DNA from: a bacterium
GTDB lineage: Bacteria; B130-G9
DNA: 12,641 bases
Assembly (NCBI GenBank): GCA_021160245.1
Contig: JAGHCW010000197.1
Coordinates: forward strand, 1-12,641
Direction of reading: 5' to 3'
Both the position numbers and the translations under genes were made by a program. Shown piece by piece: positions 293-9,375 of this stretch (position 1 is the first letter of the stretch; each line of letters starts with the position of its first letter). The notes beneath the pieces were generated by a model. The model was not told where the DNA came from. It saw nothing but the letters and a program-made list of their open reading frames with translations, and did no database searches.

Positions 293-1369
293 TTGAGAGG
301 AATGCAGGTGGAAACGCTTAGGGAGCAGATCGAGGAAAGAGAGGGTCAATTTCTCTGCGATAAGGCTATGCTGAGCCGTAACAGCCGAGGCCGAAAGCGA
401 GACGAGTCGGAATGCGACATTCGGACCTGTTTCCAGCGTGACAGGGACAGGATCATCCACAGCAAGTCGTTCAGGCGATTGATGCACAAGACCCAAGTAT
501 TCTTAAAGCCTCGAGATGACCATTACCGAACTAGGTTGACACACACGCTCGAGGTCGGTCAGATAGCGCGGACAATATCACGGGCGCTGCGACTGAACGA
601 GGACCTGGTTGAGGCGATTGCCATGGGTCACGATCTCGGTCACACGCCATTTGGACACTCGGGAGAGGCAGCGCTGCAAGAGGTTCATCCGGGGGGGTTT
701 GAGCATCCGGAGCAATCGCTGAGGGTTGTGGACTGTCTTGAGCGGCAGGGCAAAGGCCTGAACCTCACGTTTGAGGTTCGCGATGGAATCGTCAGGCACT
801 CAAAGGGCTTATCGGACCTTATCCCTAGTGACAAGAGCGGACTGCCTCGAACGCTTGAGGGTCAGATTGTTAGGATATCGGACATCATCGCTTACGTAAA
901 TCACGACATCGACGACGCCATACGTGCCGGACTTCTGACGCCGGAGTCCATCCCCAGTGAGCTCAGCTCCGTAATTGGAACAACTCACTCCGGGAGAATC
1001 GGCGTGATGGTCAATGATGTTATCCGGGCAACCTGGGACGTTGGAATGGAGTTCATCGCCATGAGCGGCAGAATATGTGAGGCAACGGAGCGGCTGCGCG
1101 CATTTCTGCATCGGGAGGTCTATAACAACCCAACGTCCGTTGAGCAGTTCGACAAGGCCAAGAGGCTTTTGAAGCGGCTTTATCAATACTACCTCGAGCA
1201 TTTGCATCTTGTGCCTACGCCACGATTTCAGCCCAAATCGGAGAATGCTAATCAGATTGTTTGCGACTATATAGCTGGGATGACGGACGGGTTTGCCATA
1301 TTGTGTTATGAGGATGTTTTTATACCGAGACCGTGGGCACGAGCGGAGGGCGGAGATGTTTATACCTGA
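293..1369 (+). CDS. dgt: dGTP triphosphohydrolase-like HD-domain phosphohydrolase (Dgt family)
   Basis: Shows the Dgt-family signature: FQRDRDRIIHSKSFRRLMHKTQVF, DHYRTRLTHTLEVGQIAR and the HD metal motif GHDLGHTPFGHSGE. The ORF opens with TTG at 293; ATG at 302 and GTG at 308 are alternative starts, and GAGG at 297-300 could serve as an RBS. The 3' end overlaps the next gene by 14 nt. Confidence 0.85.
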   Translation: MRGMQVETLREQIEEREGQFLCDKAMLSRNSRGRKRDESECDIRTCFQRDRDRIIHSKSFRRLMHKTQVFLKPRDDHYRTRLTHTLEVGQIARTISRALRLNEDLVEAIAMGHDLGHTPFGHSGEAALQEVHPGGFEHPEQSLRVVDCLERQGKGLNLTFEVRDGIVRHSKGLSDLIPSDKSGLPRTLEGQIVRISDIIAYVNHDIDDAIRAGLLTPESIPSELSSVIGTTHSGRIGVMVNDVIRATWDVGMEFIAMSGRICEATERLRAFLHREVYNNPTSVEQFDKAKRLLKRLYQYYLEHLHLVPTPRFQPKSENANQIVCDYIAGMTDGFAILCYEDVFIPRPWARAEGGDVYT

Positions 1370-2225
1370 GATTGACCTTCATCTTCATTCCAACGCCTCA
1401 GACGGGACCGAGACCCCTTCGGTTCTGGTTCGCATGGCGAGTGAGCTCGGGCTTGCGGCAATATCGCTCACCGACCATGACACCATTGAGGGCGTCGCTG
1501 AGGCCATGAGCGAGGGTGAGCGACTGGGCGTCGAGGTCATTCCCGGCATTGAGCTCAATTCCTTCTTCATGGGGCGTCCCGTTCATATTCTGGGCCTCCT
1601 TATTGACCCGGCGAGTGATTCCCTGAGAGATTTTGCGGCGAGGCGGCGCGAGGCGCGCCTCGTGAGGGCGAGGGAGATGATTCGAAGGCTTGCCGAGGCG
1701 GGGAAGCCAATCGATATGGACTTGGTGCTTAAGACAGCCGAGGGGGGCATAGTCGGCCGAGTGCATATCGCCCGTGCCCTTGTTCAGCGCGGCGCCGCTG
1801 CATCCGTGTCCGAGGCTTTCAAGAGCTACGTGAGACGAGGCTCGCCATACTATGTGTCGCTGGACAAACCGACCCCCGAGCAGGTGATCGCTGTGATACA
1901 AGATGCCGGGGGTATTGCCGCGCTTGCGCATCCGATCTTCATCCCAGATGATGTTCTGACTTCCCTGCTTCCGATCATCCTCAGCGCCGGCATCGGCGCG
2001 GTAGAGGTGCTTTGCGGCCTGAACAAGGACAAGGCTCAGGATATAGAAAAGCACTTGCAGCGGTGCTCGGAGATGTCTGCGTTTGCAGCGGAGCACAACC
2101 TTGCGCGATGCGGAGGCTCCGATTACCACGGGCTCTCGGTGAAGGGCATCCGGCTGGGTTCCGCTCATGTGCCAATTCAGTTTCTCGAGGAACTGAAGGA
2201 GAAGCACCGTGCGATGCAAGGATGA
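1356..2225 (+). CDS. PHP-family metal-dependent phosphoesterase, TrpH/YciV (RNase AM)-like 5'-3' exonuclease family
   Basis: PHP motifs IDLHLHSNASDG and ISLTDHDT are present, with later ALAHP and GGSDYHG metal ligands. ATG at 1356 is preceded by GGAGG at 1345-1349. The ORF-track start at 1293 would overlap dgt by 77 nt, so 1356 is preferred. The stop TGA at 2223-2225 overlaps the next ATG as ATGA. Confidence 0.8.
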   Translation: MFIPEIDLHLHSNASDGTETPSVLVRMASELGLAAISLTDHDTIEGVAEAMSEGERLGVEVIPGIELNSFFMGRPVHILGLLIDPASDSLRDFAARRREARLVRAREMIRRLAEAGKPIDMDLVLKTAEGGIVGRVHIARALVQRGAAASVSEAFKSYVRRGSPYYVSLDKPTPEQVIAVIQDAGGIAALAHPIFIPDDVLTSLLPIILSAGIGAVEVLCGLNKDKAQDIEKHLQRCSEMSAFAAEHNLARCGGSDYHGLSVKGIRLGSAHVPIQFLEELKEKHRAMQG

Positions 2226-3418
2226 CACCAGTTTCACAGAACCGCGATGGCGATACTGACATCTTGGATGGCTCGATGAACCACGAGCTTGAGGCCATTG
2301 TGGTCGGCGCGGGCCCGGCGGGAGGCATCTGCGCTCTTGAGCTCGCGTCCGCCGGAATCGATGTGGCTCTGCTCGAGAAAGAGGCCCTCCCGCGCTTTAA
2401 GCTATGCGCCGGTGGCTTCAGCGAGAGGGCACAAGATTTGCTGGGGCTGGATATCTCAGACGCCATCACAAACAAGGTCGAGGCGGTGGATTTCCTGGGC
2501 AAACATCGCTCTCGTCTCCGCAAGGATTCCACCAGCATCTTCGGCTCAATAGTCGACCGGAAACTCTTCGACGCGATCATTGTGGACGAGGCGCGCCTCG
2601 CTGGATGCGCCGTTTATGACGGTGCGGGGGCCCACTCGATTGAGCGTGAGGGTGGTTTATTCCGGGTGGCCACGCAAGACGGGCGCACGTTCACGAGCAA
2701 GGCCCTTGTGGGGGCGGACGGTTCCCGCTCAGTTGTCCGGCGCCATCTTGGCTTGCCTAATTTGAGGCGCCGAGGCGTAACCGTGATGTTTGAGCTCTTG
2801 CCTAATACGGATGTGAACCTTGAGAGCACAACGATCAAGCTCGATTTCGGCGTGGTTGATCACGGATATATGTGGATATTTCCGTTCGGCAAGGGCCTAT
2901 CTGTTGGAGCTGTAACCTCAAATAACTACTTGCCCGGCGCGAGGGCGAAGGTCTTGGAGTACATTGAGGACGACGAGGCGCTCTCATCGGGTTTCGATGT
3001 AAAATTTCTGGGTGGGTGTGTGGTTCCATATTGGACAGGCGAGCGTCGTGTCGGAGACGGGGGTTGCCTTCTTGCGGGCGATGCCGCCGGCCTTGTGGAC
3101 GCCTTCATGGGGGAGGGCTTGAGCTGGGCCATCTTGAGCGGTCGTATCGCGGCTGAAGCCATCATCACGCAGCGTGGGGCCGGGCGTGGGCCGCTTGGCC
3201 TACATGCGAGATACGCCACCGCGTTGAGACGCGAAGTCCTGCCCGAGCTGAGAAAGGCCTATTGGTTCGGGCGCCTCGCCTACAAGTATAAAGAGCCCAT
3301 TTTCAAACTCGTTTCGAGACTGAGCTTCGATGGTGATGTCTTCACTAAGATGACGAGGAGCAGGGTCTCCTATAGGGCACTCATCGCTCGAATGTTCAGG
3401 CAGTTGATCCGCTTTTAG
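2222..3418 (+). CDS. FAD-dependent oxidoreductase, geranylgeranyl reductase family
   Basis: Shows the Rossmann motif IVVGAGPAGG and the KLCAGG motif (GGR-type conserved Cys), plus GADGSRSVVRRHLG and GDAAGLVDAFMGEGLSWAILSG FAD-binding motifs. ATG at 2222 overlaps the upstream stop as ATGA. An alternative start at 2276 (MNHELEAIVVGAGPAGG) gives a more typical distance to the Rossmann motif. The ORF-track start at 2012 is rejected. Confidence 0.8.
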   Translation: MTPVSQNRDGDTDILDGSMNHELEAIVVGAGPAGGICALELASAGIDVALLEKEALPRFKLCAGGFSERAQDLLGLDISDAITNKVEAVDFLGKHRSRLRKDSTSIFGSIVDRKLFDAIIVDEARLAGCAVYDGAGAHSIEREGGLFRVATQDGRTFTSKALVGADGSRSVVRRHLGLPNLRRRGVTVMFELLPNTDVNLESTTIKLDFGVVDHGYMWIFPFGKGLSVGAVTSNNYLPGARAKVLEYIEDDEALSSGFDVKFLGGCVVPYWTGERRVGDGGCLLAGDAAGLVDAFMGEGLSWAILSGRIAAEAIITQRGAGRGPLGLHARYATALRREVLPELRKAYWFGRLAYKYKEPIFKLVSRLSFDGDVFTKMTRSRVSYRALIARMFRQLIRF

Positions 3419-3476
3419 AGATATACGCGCCGGCAGTTAATCGATCTGATGCTAAATCGACGGGGATAATGGTCGG

Positions 3477-5792
3477 ATGACAGGTCTCGGTCCATTCATT
3501 GAGAAGATGATGACCTCAAAAGAGGCCGAGCGATGTATCGCCGCGAGCTGTGAGATTGCAGGGAAGGCCGCCCGATATGTCTCAGTTGCGCCGCCTTTGC
3601 CGGACCCACTCCTCCGGGGCCTCTCTGCTATCGGGATTGAGAAGTTGTACTCCCACCAGGCGGCGGCTATTGAGTCGGTGCGTCAAGGCCGGGACATTGT
3701 CGTTGTAACTTCGACGGCCAGCGGCAAATCGCTTTGCTACAATTTACCTATTCTCGAATCGCTGCTTTTCGACCCTTCCGGCAAGGCCGTTCTCATGTTC
3801 CCGACCAAGGCGCTCTCTTATGACCAGCAGGCGGCGCTGCAAGGTCTGGTTGCATCGGAACCCGAGCTGTCTGGGCGGGTCGTGTCTGGGGTATATGATG
3901 GCGATACGCCGAGCCACGCGCGAAGGAAAGTGCGAGAGAGGGCCAACGTTCTCATCACAAACCCGGACATGCTTCATCAGGGCATTCTGCCACATCATTC
4001 TCGCTGGGCGGGCCTCTTCTCGGGACTTAGGTTCGTCGTTTTGGATGAACTGCACACCTATCGGGGCATCTTCGGCTCGAATGTCGCGAATGTTATTCGA
4101 AGGCTACAACGAATTTGTGAACAATACGGCGCCAAGCCTCAGTTTATTTGCTGTTCGGCAACGATCAACAATCCCAAAGAACTTGCATCGAGGCTTACGG
4201 GCCGTCCGGTTGACCTGATAGACGACGATGGCGCGCCGCAGAGCAAAAGGCATTTCATTATATGGAACGCGCCCCCCGTTGACGCTAACGGACTGATCAG
4301 GCCGACCCGGGCGGGTCAGGCGGAGCGGCTAATATCCGAACTAATGTCCGCTGATGTGCAGACAATCGCCTTCACAAGAACCCGTATGGGTGCTGAGATT
4401 CTCTCGAAGAACATAAAGGCTCGCCTTGAGAAGCAAAAGAGTCCCCTTGCGGACCGCGTTAAGCCCTATCGAGGAGGCTACCTAGCCGAGAAGAGGCGCA
4501 GGACTGAGTCGGACCTGATGAAGCGGAAGCTGCTCGCGGTCGTAAGTACCTCGGCACTTCAGCTTGGGGTTGACATAGGGTCGCTGCAAGGGTGCGTCAT
4601 AGTCGGTTACCCCGGCACCATAGCCGGAACATGGCAGCAGGCGGGGCGTGCCGGACGAAAGCAGGGCGCGTCTCTTGCGATACTCGTGGCGGGGGCAGAC
4701 CCAGTCGATCAATACATCGCCCAGAACCCCTCCTACATCTTCGACCGGAACCCGGAGGATGCCGTCATAGACCCGATGAATCCATACATTCTCACCCAGC
4801 ATATATGTTGTGCCGCTATGGAGAGACCACTTAGGGAGGAGGACGAGGCCTTCTTTGGCCCTATGTTCAGGTCGATTGTGAAACTCCTCTCGGACTGTCA
4901 GAAACTAAAACGTATCGGCGAGACCTGGTTCTGGTCAACTGATGAATACCCATCCGGGCAGGCCGGGCTTCGAACCGTGAGCGGCAAGAAACTCACAATA
5001 CAGGCTTGGGATATGACCCATTCCGGCGACGTGGTGGGCGAGATTGACGCCGCCAGCGTTCCGTTCATAGCGCATCCCGAGGCAGTCTATCTGCATGAGG
5101 GTGAGACGTTCCTTGTGGCACATGTCGATTATGGCAGAGGCATCGTGACGGTTCAGCAGGAAGATGTCGGATATTTCACGACGCCAGTTGTCAGCACGTC
5201 GATAGACCTTAAGGAAACATACGAAAAAAAAGAGCTGCGCGGCCTCACGATCGCCTGGACGTCGGTATCCGTGACGTCTCAGACGACAGGATACATGAGG
5301 CGCCGGTTCTCGACGTTTGAGAATCTCGGGACATACGAGGTCTCGCTTGAGCCCGTTATCCTTGACACTGTGGCGACCTACATTATGATCGATGAGAGCT
5401 TGAGGGATGCTCTTGCGCTTGAGAATCTGCCGGCGGTTGGTGGCATTGTGGGTTTGAAGAATCTACTCTCCGTTGTGGTTCCACTGATTGCTATGTGTGA
5501 CAGGCTCGACATCGGGATTGTGCTTGATTCCGAGAACTTGGGCGAGCAGGCTATCTTCGTATTCGACAGGTTTGACGGGGGACTGGGCTTCTCCGAGAGA
5601 GTTATGGACAGGATTGAGGAGGTTCTCGCGATGTGCCTCAAGGTGGTGTGTGGATGCCCCTGCAAGAGGGGGTGCCCATCCTGTGTCGGGATCGCGGACC
5701 CATCGACCGAGTCGCCTGTGCTTCCAGAAAGTATGCAGTCAAAAAGAAAGAGCGCCACGAGGAGATTGCTGGAGCTTGCGCTGGATGAATAG
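3477..5792 (+). CDS. Superfamily-2 DEAD/DEAH-box helicase with C-terminal DUF1998 (MrfA_Zn-binding) domain, MrfA/YprA family
   Basis: Walker A is TSTASGKS, motif II is VLDELH, motif VI is QQAGRAGR. The C-terminal CLKVVCGCPCKRGCPSCVG matches the CxCxxGCPxC Cys4 signature of DUF1998. ATG at 3477 has a weak GGGGAT RBS; an alternative start lies at the MMTSKEAE methionines. Confidence 0.9.
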   Translation: MTGLGPFIEKMMTSKEAERCIAASCEIAGKAARYVSVAPPLPDPLLRGLSAIGIEKLYSHQAAAIESVRQGRDIVVVTSTASGKSLCYNLPILESLLFDPSGKAVLMFPTKALSYDQQAALQGLVASEPELSGRVVSGVYDGDTPSHARRKVRERANVLITNPDMLHQGILPHHSRWAGLFSGLRFVVLDELHTYRGIFGSNVANVIRRLQRICEQYGAKPQFICCSATINNPKELASRLTGRPVDLIDDDGAPQSKRHFIIWNAPPVDANGLIRPTRAGQAERLISELMSADVQTIAFTRTRMGAEILSKNIKARLEKQKSPLADRVKPYRGGYLAEKRRRTESDLMKRKLLAVVSTSALQLGVDIGSLQGCVIVGYPGTIAGTWQQAGRAGRKQGASLAILVAGADPVDQYIAQNPSYIFDRNPEDAVIDPMNPYILTQHICCAAMERPLREEDEAFFGPMFRSIVKLLSDCQKLKRIGETWFWSTDEYPSGQAGLRTVSGKKLTIQAWDMTHSGDVVGEIDAASVPFIAHPEAVYLHEGETFLVAHVDYGRGIVTVQQEDVGYFTTPVVSTSIDLKETYEKKELRGLTIAWTSVSVTSQTTGYMRRRFSTFENLGTYEVSLEPVILDTVATYIMIDESLRDALALENLPAVGGIVGLKNLLSVVVPLIAMCDRLDIGIVLDSENLGEQAIFVFDRFDGGLGFSERVMDRIEEVLAMCLKVVCGCPCKRGCPSCVGIADPSTESPVLPESMQSKRKSATRRLLELALDE

Positions 5793-5796
5793 ATAG

Positions 5797-6360
5797 GTGA
5801 ACAAGTTGGATAGACCCACAAGTATCGGGCTCCTTGAGCTCAACAGCGTCGCCATTGGGATTAAAGCCTGCGACGTCATGCTAAAGGCGGCGTTTGTGAA
5901 GCTCTTGCGGGCTACCACAATCTGCCCCGGCAAATACGTGATCATGGTCTATGGCGGTGTGGACGCAGTCAGCGCCTCGGTCCGAGATGGCCGCGACGCT
6001 GGCGGGGAAAACGTCATCGATCACCTGATCATCCCGAATATCCACTCGTCCGTAATCCCGGCCATTGCTGCCGTAACCGAGGTTCAAGAGGTGGATGCGG
6101 TCGGCGTCATAGAGACCTTCTCGGCCGCATCCGCCATCGTCGCGGGGGACCTTGCGGCAAAAGCGGCGGACGTTCAGCTGATAGAGGTCAGGCTCGCAAA
6201 TGGCCTGGGCGGAAAGTCGTTCGTCGTTCTGACGGGTGATGTGTCGGCCGTTCAGGCTGCTATAGCTGCTGGTTCCGCCCATCCAAAGGAGCAGGGACTA
6301 TTCGTTCAAAGCGTCGTCATCCCGTCGCCTCACGAAGAGCTCAAGGATGCGCTGCTATAA
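5797..6360 (+). CDS. Bacterial microcompartment tandem-domain shell protein (BMC-T), PduT-like
   Basis: Two BMC domains are present: SIGLLELNSVAIGIKACDVMLKAAFVKLL...TTICPGKY and AVGVIETFSAASAIVAGDLAAKAADVQLIEV...GDVSAVQAAIAAGS...VVIPSPHEEL. These are collinear with PduT (AIGILELTSIA...KTICPGKF / AVGIVETWSVA...VIPRPHEAM). Cys43 (codon TGC at 5923-5925) aligns with the PduT Fe-S ligand Cys38. The start is GTG at 5797, 4 nt after the helicase stop; TTG at 5806 with AGGTGA 6 nt upstream is an alternative. Confidence 0.85.
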   Translation: MNKLDRPTSIGLLELNSVAIGIKACDVMLKAAFVKLLRATTICPGKYVIMVYGGVDAVSASVRDGRDAGGENVIDHLIIPNIHSSVIPAIAAVTEVQEVDAVGVIETFSAASAIVAGDLAAKAADVQLIEVRLANGLGGKSFVVLTGDVSAVQAAIAAGSAHPKEQGLFVQSVVIPSPHEELKDALL

Positions 6361-6440: not shown

Positions 6441-7883
6441 TCAATCGGCGCCCGGCTGCTGCGCCTCAATGGTCTTCTGCTCGCCCGAGGCGTCTTGATA
6501 CGGCTCTATGCCCAGACCTTCCATGATCACCTCAATTAGGGCGATGGCTTTGTGTTCCAGCGGCAGCACTTCCTTGAGCACCTCGGCCTGCTTGTTGCGC
6601 ATTTCCTGTGTCCACGCCTCATAGTTAACGGTGAAAGGAGACGGGATGTTTTCCTCACCCTCCTTTAACAGCTCGACCTGCTGGGCGTAGATGTCGGCCA
6701 GCCGCAGGACACTTTCTCGCATGCAGCCAAACACGCCGGCGTATGTCTTCAAAAACTTGACCGCCTCCCCTCTGTCGGCTATGAAGCGCTGATATATCCA
6801 GTGGTTACCGAGTAATATGTTATCGTGTTCTTGTGTGGAGATAGAGGCGATTGAGGCCTCATTGCCGAGGAAATCTATCCAATGCTCAAGAGCGCTTGGC
6901 CCCGAATAATACGTGTCAAACTTCTTCGTTGTTCCCGCCTTGTAGGCTATCGCGAGCGATTGACGGACGGCCTCCTCGCCGGAGAGCGACTCGGATTTCT
7001 CCCCGAGGACCGCGGCCACCCACGGCGTCTTCTCAGCGATGTTGTAGTCATTCATCTCGCCATCAAAGCAGGAACGGCAGAAAAAGTCGCGCTTGCCGTT
7101 CTGGTAGCCGGTGATTATACCCCACTCGGGGACATATACGATGTCGATGCCGATAACGGGCAGGCCCCTGTCTATGCTCTTGATGATCTGCTGCCTCATC
7201 TCATCCTCGGTTAAGGCCTTCGGATCTACAGAATTCTCGCCTATCATCTCAAACCACTCTACTTCGCGCCCAAGCGCCTTAAGCAACTGCTTGGTGCAAT
7301 TGAGGCCCACACCGGGGTCCGGTGAGCTTGGGCATAGCTGCTCGTGAACTTGCAGTCTGAAGGCGCTGCCGGAGATGCCCATTAAGTAGTTGTAGTTGTG
7401 CTGCTCGCCGAAATGGGCCAGAACGCGCCTCGCACAAGCTATGAAGCTGCTTAGCTCGTTGCTCTCCATTGAGAGCGGCTCAATCCCCTCGATTATCTTC
7501 GCGTCCGGCATTCGATGGACCTTCGTCACTGTCTTGAGAGATACGCCGATCCTGCCGGGCGCAAGCGTGATGTCGATCTTCTCTTCGCCGCGTCGAATGA
7601 CAAGGCCGATGTCAGCCTTTCCGCCGGCGGCCTCGATGGCCGTGTGCAGGTCGAAGAGGCTTTCTATGGGCTTGCCGTCATACATAAGAATAACGTCGCC
7701 TGGCTTCAAGCCCTTGCTATCCGCCTGGCTTCTCGGGACCAATTGCTCGACCTCAATGTAACGCTCGACGGACTTCGGCGGCGCTGTGACCGCGGTCGTC
7801 TCCTGAACCTGATTACCTGCACAGCCCCAAAGAACCGCGACAGAAAGCAGCAATATGCAAAATAAACTCGCTTGCCTCATCAT
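6441..7883 (-). CDS. Secreted/lipoprotein with N-terminal PDZ domain and large uncharacterised C-terminal domain
   Basis: The signal peptide MMRQASLFCILLLSVAVLWGCAG has a possible lipobox Cys. A PDZ-like segment follows (GLKPGDVILMYDGKPIESLFDLHTAIEAAGGKADIGLVIRRGEEKIDITLAP). The ATG start has GAGGAG 7 nt upstream on the - strand. The roughly 330-aa C-terminal region has no family I can name from sequence alone. Confidence 0.7.
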   Translation of the reverse strand: MMRQASLFCILLLSVAVLWGCAGNQVQETTAVTAPPKSVERYIEVEQLVPRSQADSKGLKPGDVILMYDGKPIESLFDLHTAIEAAGGKADIGLVIRRGEEKIDITLAPGRIGVSLKTVTKVHRMPDAKIIEGIEPLSMESNELSSFIACARRVLAHFGEQHNYNYLMGISGSAFRLQVHEQLCPSSPDPGVGLNCTKQLLKALGREVEWFEMIGENSVDPKALTEDEMRQQIIKSIDRGLPVIGIDIVYVPEWGIITGYQNGKRDFFCRSCFDGEMNDYNIAEKTPWVAAVLGEKSESLSGEEAVRQSLAIAYKAGTTKKFDTYYSGPSALEHWIDFLGNEASIASISTQEHDNILLGNHWIYQRFIADRGEAVKFLKTYAGVFGCMRESVLRLADIYAQQVELLKEGEENIPSPFTVNYEAWTQEMRNKQAEVLKEVLPLEHKAIALIEVIMEGLGIEPYQDASGEQKTIEAQQPGAD

Positions 7884-8089: not shown

Positions 8090-8716
8090 TCACTGCGCTA
8101 GCGCTTGCGCAAACTGGTTTACAACCTCAAAATTGCGCCCGAAATCGAGAATAAGAAATCCTGAGACCGGTGTGCTGACGGCAGTGATCTCATGCGAACC
8201 ATTTTCCAGTTTATCTATCTTGAGCGTAACTCGGGATGCGTAGAAGGGCCTTGTGAACCCCTCAATACAGCCAACCTCTCGATCCACTACTCTCAACCTG
8301 ACGCCCAGGGACGAGACCGCCGAGAGAACATCGTCGAAGACCTGTTCAGGGCTGTGCTCCGGCCCGCGATGAACCACGCTGGATTGCGAGAGAAAAAGGG
8401 CTCTGCCATGAGGCGCGCCGTATTGCTTGCTCAGAGCGAGGCAGCGGTTCTTATCGTGCTTGACGACTGGCAATAAAATGGCCAGCGATATGATTGCGGA
8501 GACGAAACCGAATAGGATACCCATAACAACGACATCGCCAAATGAATATATGGGCAGCACCAGGGGATGGAGCGAGTCCTCCCGTATGATGTTTGGGCCG
8601 ACATAGAGCATGGCCACGATGACTCCTGCGCAGAAGAAGACGGAGACCGTAATCGTGATGCTCGCTACGAGTTTCGCGTATTGTCTCTTCATTCTGGTCT
8701 GAACGTGTGCTTTCAC
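8090..8716 (-). CDS. Small membrane protein with 2 TM helices and C-terminal soluble domain, unknown function
   Basis: Two hydrophobic helices are visible (ITITVSVFFCAGVIVAMLYV and VVVMGILFGFVSAIISLAILLPVV), followed by a roughly 120-aa soluble domain. The start is either GTG at 8716, overlapping the upstream stop as GTGA, or ATG at 8692. No clear Shine-Dalgarno precedes either, which fits translational coupling to the upstream FGE-domain gene. Confidence 0.6.
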   Translation of the reverse strand: MKAHVQTRMKRQYAKLVASITITVSVFFCAGVIVAMLYVGPNIIREDSLHPLVLPIYSFGDVVVMGILFGFVSAIISLAILLPVVKHDKNRCLALSKQYGAPHGRALFLSQSSVVHRGPEHSPEQVFDDVLSAVSSLGVRLRVVDREVGCIEGFTRPFYASRVTLKIDKLENGSHEITAVSTPVSGFLILDFGRNFEVVNQFAQALAQ

Positions 8717-9375
8717 TTGATCTCAATAGCCGGCGCTTTGCAGCAGCGAGCCCCATTGAAGACGTATCTGACAGATTTATCTAGCGTATAAGAGCTTCTG
8801 CAAGTCGAAAAACGGCCGCTAAGCCAACTTCCGCCGAAGATGACGGCGCTCTCCTTGTCGCTTGTCGTCCACTCTGAGACATTTCCGCTCATGTCGAAAA
8901 CGCCATAGCCACTAACGCAACCTGGAAACGTTCCCGACGGGAAGGCTTTGCTGCCGTTCATCATCCACTCCTGCTCCGTGTTGCAGGTCTCTGGAAAGTA
9001 GGAGACTCCATAAGGATAGGCGGTCTGTGCCGGGCCCTGGCACGCCGATTGCCATTCGCCGCCTGTGCAGAGCCTCTTGCCAGCCTTGAAGCAGAGCGAC
9101 TCGGCCTCGATCCAAGATATGTCGAGAATCGGCATCACTCCGATTTCATTGGGGTACTCGAAAAGATCGATGCAGAATGCCTCCTGCATCTCGCCGTCCC
9201 GGATTTTCATGGACGGAACAAGCGCCATGCCTGGGGGGCATATCAGCGATACTGTCGGAATGCGTTCCTCAAGAGTCTCGGGAGCATCCGGCGCAGCAGT
9301 TTCATCCTGTCCAAAGCCAATCATCGGTTGGCCGAAAAGGCATAGCGCGAAGCAGAATGCCAAAAAGCGTGTCAT
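8713..9375 (-). CDS. Secreted formylglycine-generating-enzyme (FGE-sulfatase/SUMF1) domain protein
   Basis: The N-terminal signal peptide is MTRFLAFCFALCLFGQPMIGFG. The hallmark FGE-sulfatase motif GVFDMSGNVSEWT is present, with flanking conserved Trp/Gly/Cys pattern and a C-terminal RCCKAP. A strong AGGAGG RBS sits about 9 nt upstream of the ATG on the - strand. Confidence 0.8.
   Translation of the reverse strand: MTRFLAFCFALCLFGQPMIGFGQDETAAPDAPETLEERIPTVSLICPPGMALVPSMKIRDGEMQEAFCIDLFEYPNEIGVMPILDISWIEAESLCFKAGKRLCTGGEWQSACQGPAQTAYPYGVSYFPETCNTEQEWMMNGSKAFPSGTFPGCVSGYGVFDMSGNVSEWTTSDKESAVIFGGSWLSGRFSTCRSSYTLDKSVRYVFNGARCCKAPAIEIK

Follow-up and report, generated by a model that had tools for sequence, protein, structure and literature searches.

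Five co-directional open reading frames (ORFs) on the plus strand, taken from the ORF list, occupy positions 293–6360 (genes 302–6360) of the 12,641-bp contig JAGHCW010000197.1 of a metagenome-assembled genome, the whole stretch analysed here and hereafter called the window. They encode a dGTPase-like enzyme, a PHP-domain phosphoesterase, a geranylgeranyl-reductase (GGR)-family flavoprotein, an MrfA-type DUF1998 helicase and a PduT-like BMC-T microcompartment shell protein (Table 1). Each of these family calls, already made in the original prediction, was confirmed by Pfam, NCBIfam and solved-structure matches, with the HD, PHP, GGR, DEAD/Helicase_C/DUF1998 and BMC domains all recovered in a profile hidden Markov model search. 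The five genes had further been regarded as a candidate for a new DNA-repair or defence module. This was not supported, as the order is restricted to one clade and breaks inside it, the partners are missing elsewhere and the defence cut-offs were not reached. From the family memberships, the junctions and the distribution of synteny, it is likely that the locus represents a lineage-specific, mixed-function string of housekeeping genes in a Coatesbacteria-related bacterium, composed of a dGTPase-PHP-GGR trio, a stand-alone MrfA-type helicase and a satellite shell gene, rather than a dedicated system.

Table 1. Features of the five-gene string and their positions in the window
Feature	Position	Strand	Basis
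dGTPase-like dNTP triphosphohydrolase, HD + HD_assoc, 355 aa, housekeeping type	302..1369	+	Pfam, NCBIfam, PDB
PHP-domain phosphoesterase, TrpH/YciV family (RNase AM / 3',5'-bisphosphate nucleotidase type), 289 aa	1356..2225	+	PF02811, PDB
Geranylgeranyl-reductase-family FAD flavoprotein, 398 aa (ATG 2222) or 380 aa (ATG 2276)	2222..3418	+	TIGR02032, 3OZ2
MrfA/YprA-type SF2 DExH helicase, winged-helix + Cys4 MZB (DUF1998), 771 aa	3477..5792	+	Pfam, 6ZNP
Sigma-70-like promoter TTGACA-N16-TATGAT inside helicase ORF, ~420 nt 5' of BMC-T (predicted)	5362..5389	+	11/12 consensus
PduT-like tandem-domain BMC-T shell protein, 184 aa (alternative GTG start 5797)	5806..6360	+	two PF00936 stretches

Protein families and gene junctions

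The first product resembles the short-form dGTPase-like enzyme 2DQB, its top PDB match (E 1e-69, annotated as a putative dGTP triphosphohydrolase), in carrying HD and HD_assoc domains and in exceeding the cut-off of the NCBIfam equivalog NF002327 (513 bits against 393). The structure 2DQB is presumably that of the Thermus thermophilus enzyme of the TT1383 type. Unlike members of the anti-phage dGTPase clade, the window protein fails the cut-offs of that clade's models (195 against 400 for NF041026 and 163 against 383 for NF003701), and with the housekeeping model passed, the earlier suggestion of a defensive dGTPase was not supported. A score of 258 bits on the PADLOC dGTPase model, which has no curated cut-off, represents a generic family match. 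The product annotated as dGTPase at NCBI (MCD6328163.1) begins at 302. Upstream of the gene, the AT-rich sequence TTGAAA-N15-TATTAT at 220–246 may serve as promoter of this gene; the spacer is one base below the range of the promoter scan, which flagged only a 9/12 site at 66–93.

The PHP protein shares the PHP fold and aligned metal-binding motifs with Escherichia coli YciV/TrpH (RNase AM) and with Chromobacterium Cv1693, a 3',5'-bisphosphate nucleotidase, whereas it misses both NCBIfam equivalog cut-offs (178 against 400 on NF041577 and 161 against 375 on the RNase RNM model). Its PDB matches are the 5'-3' exoribonuclease 7UG9 (E 3e-36), 3E0F and 2YB1, with E values ranging from 3e-36 to 3e-32, and the motifs H-x-H, DH and GSD(Y/F)H align with those of these relatives. 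The three nearest relatives outside the clade defined below stand in other operons, namely def-QPRT-ThiS-MoaE, nusA-infB-rbfA-PHP-truB-ribF-rpsO-pnp and MoaE-PHP-PHP-MoCF. The second of these is locus L171 (4636–6830), where the TrpH-type homologue is 42% identical to the window protein; its position in a nusA–pnp operon fits a role of the PHP family in RNA maturation. None of the PADLOC models matched the PHP, GGR or BMC-T proteins of the window.

The GGR protein scored 210 bits on the subfamily model TIGR02032 (cut-off 158.8) and matched 3OZ2 best in the PDB, and it fell far under every cut-off of the ChlP, MenJ and DGGGPL reductase equivalogs. The corresponding NCBI product, MCD6328165.1, begins at 2222. 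The N-termini of five homologues from the clade (M-x(3-6)-E-V-[IV]-V-V-G-x-G-P) agree better with the ATG at 2276, so a start at this codon would fit better and would turn the junction with the PHP gene into a 50-nt gap.

By homology, the fourth product belongs to the repair branch as a full-length orthologue of MrfA/YprA, without MrfB. It contains the Pfam domains DEAD, Helicase_C, WHD_HRQ1 and MZB/DUF1998, is colinear with the B. subtilis YprA/MrfA structure 6ZNP over residues 37–739 (E 7e-183), and keeps D190, E191 and H193 as well as C727, C729, C733 and C736 unchanged across 15 homologues. It is of the same length class as B. subtilis MrfA and Mycobacterium smegmatis SftH, with the same order NTR-RecA1-RecA2-WH-OB/CON-MZB and the same four cysteines, whereas it differs from this repair branch in having no adjoining gene for an MrfB-type DEDDh exonuclease and in falling below the cut-off of the helicase/secretion-neighbourhood DEAH equivalog TIGR03817 (690 against 874). 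No family match to an MrfB-type exonuclease was obtained among the neighbours in the window or in the gene tables of the clade loci. The YprA family has been divided into a defence branch, whose members bear domain insertions and are fused to or partnered with nucleases, and a repair branch, in which the helicase is reported either to go with MrfB or to have 'no conserved genomic context' (Bell et al., 2025). As no MrfB gene is adjacent, the window helicase matches the 'YprA only' situation of that study. Neither a fused nuclease nor an insertion of the defence branch was found with Pfam or in the alignment with 6ZNP, which indicates a plain MrfA architecture. On the defence models it reached 28 against 999 and 19 against 950 (DrmA) and 62 against 550 (DpdF); the DrmA scores do not support the likeness to DISARM drawn earlier. 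Many PADLOC helicase models match the SF2 core, as generic family matches, and the partner genes DrmB/C, DruA-D and Dpd were not found in the window with Pfam or PADLOC.

By exact database look-up, the 771-aa helicase product was absent, and none of the starts 3477, 3507 and 3510 was on record; it is the only one of the five products without a record at the tested starts, the other four of the contig being recorded. A 583-aa fragment (P0121) with 100% identity to the helicase is encoded on another ENA contig, of 5,670 bp. Public annotation might place the start of the gene elsewhere or flag the gene differently. In addition, the last part of the helicase gene holds a 102-aa ORF in an alternative frame (5488–5796, plus strand), which lies 3' of the promoter-like site and ends 1 nt before GTG 5797; it is probably due to chance.

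The tight co-directional packing described earlier was borne out, and so were its junctions as first measured. The dGTPase stop (1369) and the PHP ATG (1356) give a 14-nt overlap, with GGAGGGCGGAG 5' of the ATG, and the same 14-nt overlap occurs in the clade loci L001, L086 and L087. The PHP stop (2225) and the GGR ATG (2222) form an ATGA overlap, the GGR stop (3418) and the helicase ATG (3477) are separated by 58 nt, and the helicase stop (5792) and the BMC-T GTG (5797) by 4 nt. Two of these values, the ATGA overlap and the 4-nt gap, shift with the choice of start for GGR and BMC-T. For the shell gene, an AGGTGA Shine-Dalgarno sequence (5795–5800) precedes the TTG at 5806. Exact look-up of the 187-aa product of the GTG start gave no record, and the public call (P0001) is 184 aa long, indicating TTG 5806 as the start; a helicase/BMC-T gap of 13 nt is thus more likely. 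Folding of the 58-nt gap, of the PHP/GGR junction and of the convergent spacer between BMC-T and the downstream PDZ gene revealed no unusual structure (z-scores 0.2–0.9). No plus-strand intrinsic-terminator-like site was detected in 293–6360, and scans of the window with Rfam (gathering threshold) and for tRNA gave no matches.

Gene order inside and outside the Coatesbacteria clade

The closest relatives of these genes derive from metagenomes and from metagenome-assembled genomes (MAGs) of Candidatus Coatesbacteria, with identities of 71–82% for BMC-T, 58–66% for the helicase and 54–60% for PHP; the next tier stands at about 59%, 50% and 44%, respectively. Synteny in related genomes, whose absence had been named beforehand as speaking against the operon, was found inside this clade, where further independent contigs share the order. 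HD-PHP-GGR-helicase is kept in the loci L001/L002/L093, L003, L004, L086 and L087, of which L086 lies on a contig that begins just 5' of HD. The junctions among HD, PHP and GGR are overlaps or gaps of at most 10 nt in most clade loci, and those between GGR and helicase spread over 5–223 nt and those between helicase and BMC-T over 3–93 nt, or contain a restriction-modification (R-M) insert. Upstream, GT2 genes are kept in L001/L002/L093, L003, L004 and L087, Thi4 in L003, L004 and L087, and MurJ, further upstream, in L003 and L087. Downstream of BMC-T, a PDZ gene on the opposite strand is kept in L001/L002/L093, L003 and L089. The conserved order thus exceeds the five genes, as shared ancestry would predict and a self-contained module would not.

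The upstream flanks of L003 (12371–17515) and L087 (1114–6400) comprise Thi4, two GT2 glycosyltransferases and MurJ, and a UbiA prenyltransferase and a GHMP kinase are encoded downstream in L003. It is possible that these flanking genes (Thi4/GT2/MurJ, UbiA and GHMP kinase) are lipid or prenyl partners of the GGR flavoprotein.

Inside the clade the string is also broken. In a sub-lineage, a D12 adenine methyltransferase gene has been inserted precisely between helicase and BMC-T, in L004 (7923–9927), L086 (5799–6716) and L095 (26–1367). In L004 and L095 it is accompanied by a SacI-like endonuclease, forming a type II R-M pair, and in L086 the methyltransferase is alone; the BMC-T of L086 is intact, though missing from the gene table. 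The locus L089 (4203–9377) reads uvrB / HEPN-MNT (toxin-antitoxin type) / uvrC / helicase / BMC-T / PDZ and contains no HD, PHP or GGR gene (for PHP, within 10 kb upstream). MrfAB of B. subtilis operate independently of UvrABC (Burby and Simmons preprint). Having uvrB and uvrC upstream in L089 would thus accord with a repair role of the helicase, but it gives no information on the other four genes.

Outside the clade, a helicase profile scan with one genome per species gave at least 80 loci (37–46% identity), with outgroup phyla only among the matches listed; these include Planctomycetota, Latescibacterota, Bacillota, Acidobacteriota, Chloroflexota and others. Searching the flanks of about 10 kb by tblastn with the other proteins of the window, no dGTPase, GGR, BMC-T or PDZ relative was found in the 80 loci listed, and PHP gave one weak match. 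A BMC-T profile scan of metagenomes yielded 80 loci, six from the clade and 74 from outside it (44–57% identity), and helicase, dGTPase, PHP and GGR occurred in none of the 74. The neighbourhood conservation expected for helicase and BMC-T orthologues is thus present inside the clade and absent from the outgroup loci listed.

These distributions bear on the possibility of an MrfAB-like excision-repair system, in which the PHP nuclease would take the place of the DEDDh exonuclease MrfB and the dNTPase would support repair synthesis. Such a system would agree with the full-length MrfA orthology of the helicase, with a 5'-3' exoribonuclease and nucleotide phosphoesterases being the closest matches of PHP, with the presence of both genes in one conserved string in most clade loci, and with the L089 helicase adjoining uvrB/uvrC, which fits a repair role of the helicase itself. 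Nevertheless, PHP and helicase are never adjacent, because GGR always intervenes, the L089 helicase has no PHP gene within 10 kb upstream, and 79 of the 80 outgroup helicase loci listed are without a PHP relative. The nearest PHP relatives reside in translation/RNA-processing and cofactor operons, and the pathway would leave no place for GGR or BMC-T. An excision-repair module of this kind is accordingly considered unlikely.

The shell gene and the promoter-like element upstream of it

The best NCBIfam model for the BMC-T protein is eut_PduT (TIGR02526), on which it remained below the cut-off (137 against 250), and its PDB matches are led by 3NWG (E 6e-54), followed by PduT (3N79/3PAC). As in these single-layer BMC-T proteins of the PduT type, there are two BMC domains, a cysteine in CPGKY and the motif D-x-x-x-K in both domains. 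The pore Cys40 (CPGKY) and the edge pairs D23/K27 and D115/K119 are invariant across the BMC-T proteins of the clade, and an invariant pore cysteine together with edge lysines fits an ordinary shell tile. The CPGKY cysteine is what we take to be the counterpart of the PduT [4Fe-4S] ligand Cys38.

In its surroundings the clade BMC-T gene differs from those of the PduT type. Within 10 kb, none of the clade loci showed a BMC-H, BMC-P, AldDH, PduL or PduS-like gene. By contrast, 72 of the 74 non-clade loci (44–57% identity) show a PduS/RnfC-like gene just upstream and/or BMC-P just downstream on the same contig, and AldDH, BMC-H and DeoC are frequently present as well; the remaining two are contigs shorter than 1.8 kb. 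The longer non-clade loci (L096–L169) mostly display a fixed order of a PduS/RnfC-like flavo-Fe-S protein, BMC-T and BMC-P, which fits a PduS-PduT redox pairing that the Coatesbacteria BMC-T has lost. The locus of the nearest non-clade BMC-T (P0016, 59%) reads PduL-BMC-H-AldDH-RnfC-BMC-T-BMC-H-RpiB-DeoC, a layout (PduL...RpiB-DeoC) of the sugar-phosphate-utilisation (SPU) type (Sutter et al., 2021). In that catalogue Coatesbacteria are unmentioned in the main text and named in the BMC-P tree file, and the supplement lists an SPU4-like BMC-P of the Candidatus Coatesbacteria 4484_99 MAG in a 'fragmented (sat)' locus (Sutter et al., 2021), indicating that the phylum carries other shell genes. A literature search combining Coatesbacteria and microcompartment returned nothing relevant. 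The GC contents are too alike to assign SPU-like contigs to the clade (0.55–0.60 in clade loci against 0.59–0.62 in SPU-like contigs of the same samples). The BMC-T protein is most plausibly a PduT-like shell tile of the satellite kind, by analogy with the satellite BMC loci in which, as in the window, a shell gene stands apart from the others (Sutter et al., 2021), the main locus being a supposition here. That a PduT-like shell gene stands away from microcompartment genes (in the 10 kb covered) throughout a candidate phylum may be of interest to specialists.

The element at 5362–5389 is the only strong sigma-70-like site in the five-gene block and occurs at identical codons in six of seven clade loci. 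Over a 10-codon window set beforehand by the promoter scan, synonymous-codon conservation is 0.77 compared with a helicase-gene mean of 0.51, the highest of all 10-codon windows (top 0.15%). The leucine in the -35 hexamer is encoded by CTT in all seven clade loci, although CTT makes up 13–35% of the leucine codons in these genes. The element was present in none of 23 mapped outgroup helicases (best 8/12), and the residues at this spot are LDT.A.Y.MI in the clade and (M/L)HT..(Y/A)W in the outgroup. A promoter has apparently been written into the coding sequence of the helicase, altering the amino acids there relative to outgroups. These findings suggest that the gene 3' of the helicase has its own promoter, although the compared sequences are related and few and the evidence is suggestive, not proof. 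In any case, a promoter-like site conserved inside the helicase gene speaks against the five genes being necessarily transcribed as one unit.

A probable mixed-function string and the remaining alternatives

Since the five-gene order is found only in Coatesbacteria, it is better seen as an ordinary mixed operon than as a new repair or anti-phage system. The dGTPase-PHP-GGR trio would probably be translated from one mRNA in a tightly coupled manner. Within it, the dGTPase-like dNTPase may control or clean the dNTP pool, the PHP phosphoesterase of the TrpH/RNase-AM type may act as a pAp/oligonucleotide phosphatase or as a 5'-3' exoribonuclease, and the GGR flavoprotein may act as a reductase on the prenyl chains of a lipid or a quinone. 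The helicase would translocate along DNA in the 3'-5' direction and serve an excision-type repair route that lacks an MrfB partner. The BMC-T gene would be a satellite displaced from an SPU-like metabolosome locus presumed to lie elsewhere in the genome, its product retaining the pore cysteine for a putative [4Fe-4S] cluster and the edge lysines for tiling, and it would probably be driven by its own promoter in the 3' end of the helicase gene. The adjacency of the five genes probably reflects shared ancestry and operon drift rather than a common biochemical pathway. Conserved operons of mixed function exist, such as rpsU-dnaG-rpoD. The window string resembles operons of this type in its tight, co-directional packing of functionally unrelated housekeeping genes and in its internal promoter, here a predicted one, whereas it is confined to one candidate phylum.

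Several observations weigh against this interpretation. Among the five proteins, BMC-T shows the highest conservation (71–82% identity, compared with 46–60% for PHP and GGR), and no further BMC gene occurs within 10 kb in any clade locus. The sole Coatesbacteria BMC-P on record belongs to another MAG, and a main BMC locus in the window genome is only surmised. The helicase–BMC-T adjacency survives new upstream genes (L089), a cupin replacing PDZ downstream (L086, L095) and the R-M insert, and its persistence at about 60% protein identity is more than would be expected of a purely accidental neighbour. Co-transcription and all of the enzymatic activities are deduced from homology.

Part of this evidence would also accord with BMC-T being a functional partner of its neighbours, either as an Fe-S pseudohexamer acting outside a shell with the helicase or flavoprotein, or within a cluster feeding products of dNTP or DNA breakdown (deoxyribose phosphate) to an SPU-type microcompartment. 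The adjacency to the helicase outlasts rearrangements on both sides, the protein is highly conserved with an invariant pore cysteine, its nearest relatives lie in SPU-like loci with DeoC and RpiB, and SPU microcompartments have been proposed to metabolise products of DNA degradation. However, the adjacency is restricted to one clade, the R-M inserts and the conserved internal promoter suggest independent expression of BMC-T, the conserved edge lysines point to ordinary shell tiling, and none of the 74 SPU-like loci contains the dGTPase, PHP or helicase gene. To our knowledge, MrfA-type helicases and GGR have no role in nucleotide catabolism. A partnership of this kind appears quite improbable. 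There is likewise only a slim chance that BMC-T has been captured beside the MrfA helicase as a stand-alone Fe-S pseudohexamer with a non-microcompartment function, or as a gate from nucleotide or DNA breakdown to an SPU-type organelle; this chance is granted because the adjacency persists without other microcompartment genes nearby. If true, a shell protein would have acquired a new role and kept it throughout the Coatesbacteria.

Finally, an anti-phage system that combines a dNTP-depleting dGTPase with a YprA-family helicase, akin to DISARM, Druantia or ARMADA, is very improbable: the generic PADLOC matches of both proteins, the R-M genes that separate helicase from BMC-T in three relatives and the HEPN-MNT pair nearby in L089 would speak for it, but the model scores of both proteins and the missing partner genes given above speak against it, none of the defence-branch hallmarks of Bell et al. 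was detected in a helicase with only DEAD, Helicase_C, WHD and MZB domains, and the flanks across the clade are stable chromosomal housekeeping genes, not a variable island. Tight packing and suggestive names (dGTPase, PHP nuclease, DUF1998 helicase) can mimic a defence or repair system and call for caution. The comparative context shows instead housekeeping genes that are strung together in one clade and otherwise unlinked.

Beyond the string, the PDZ gene of the window (6441–7883, minus strand), convergent to BMC-T, encodes a 480-aa protein with an N-terminal hydrophobic segment ending in Cys (possibly a lipoprotein), one PDZ domain and about 350 further residues without a family match; its counterparts in L001, L003 and L089 are 47–57% identical. 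Further along, a 208-aa predicted membrane protein (8090–8716, minus strand), for which Pfam, NCBIfam and PADLOC gave no match, overlaps by 4 nt with the gene of an FGE-sulfatase-domain protein (8713–9375, minus strand).

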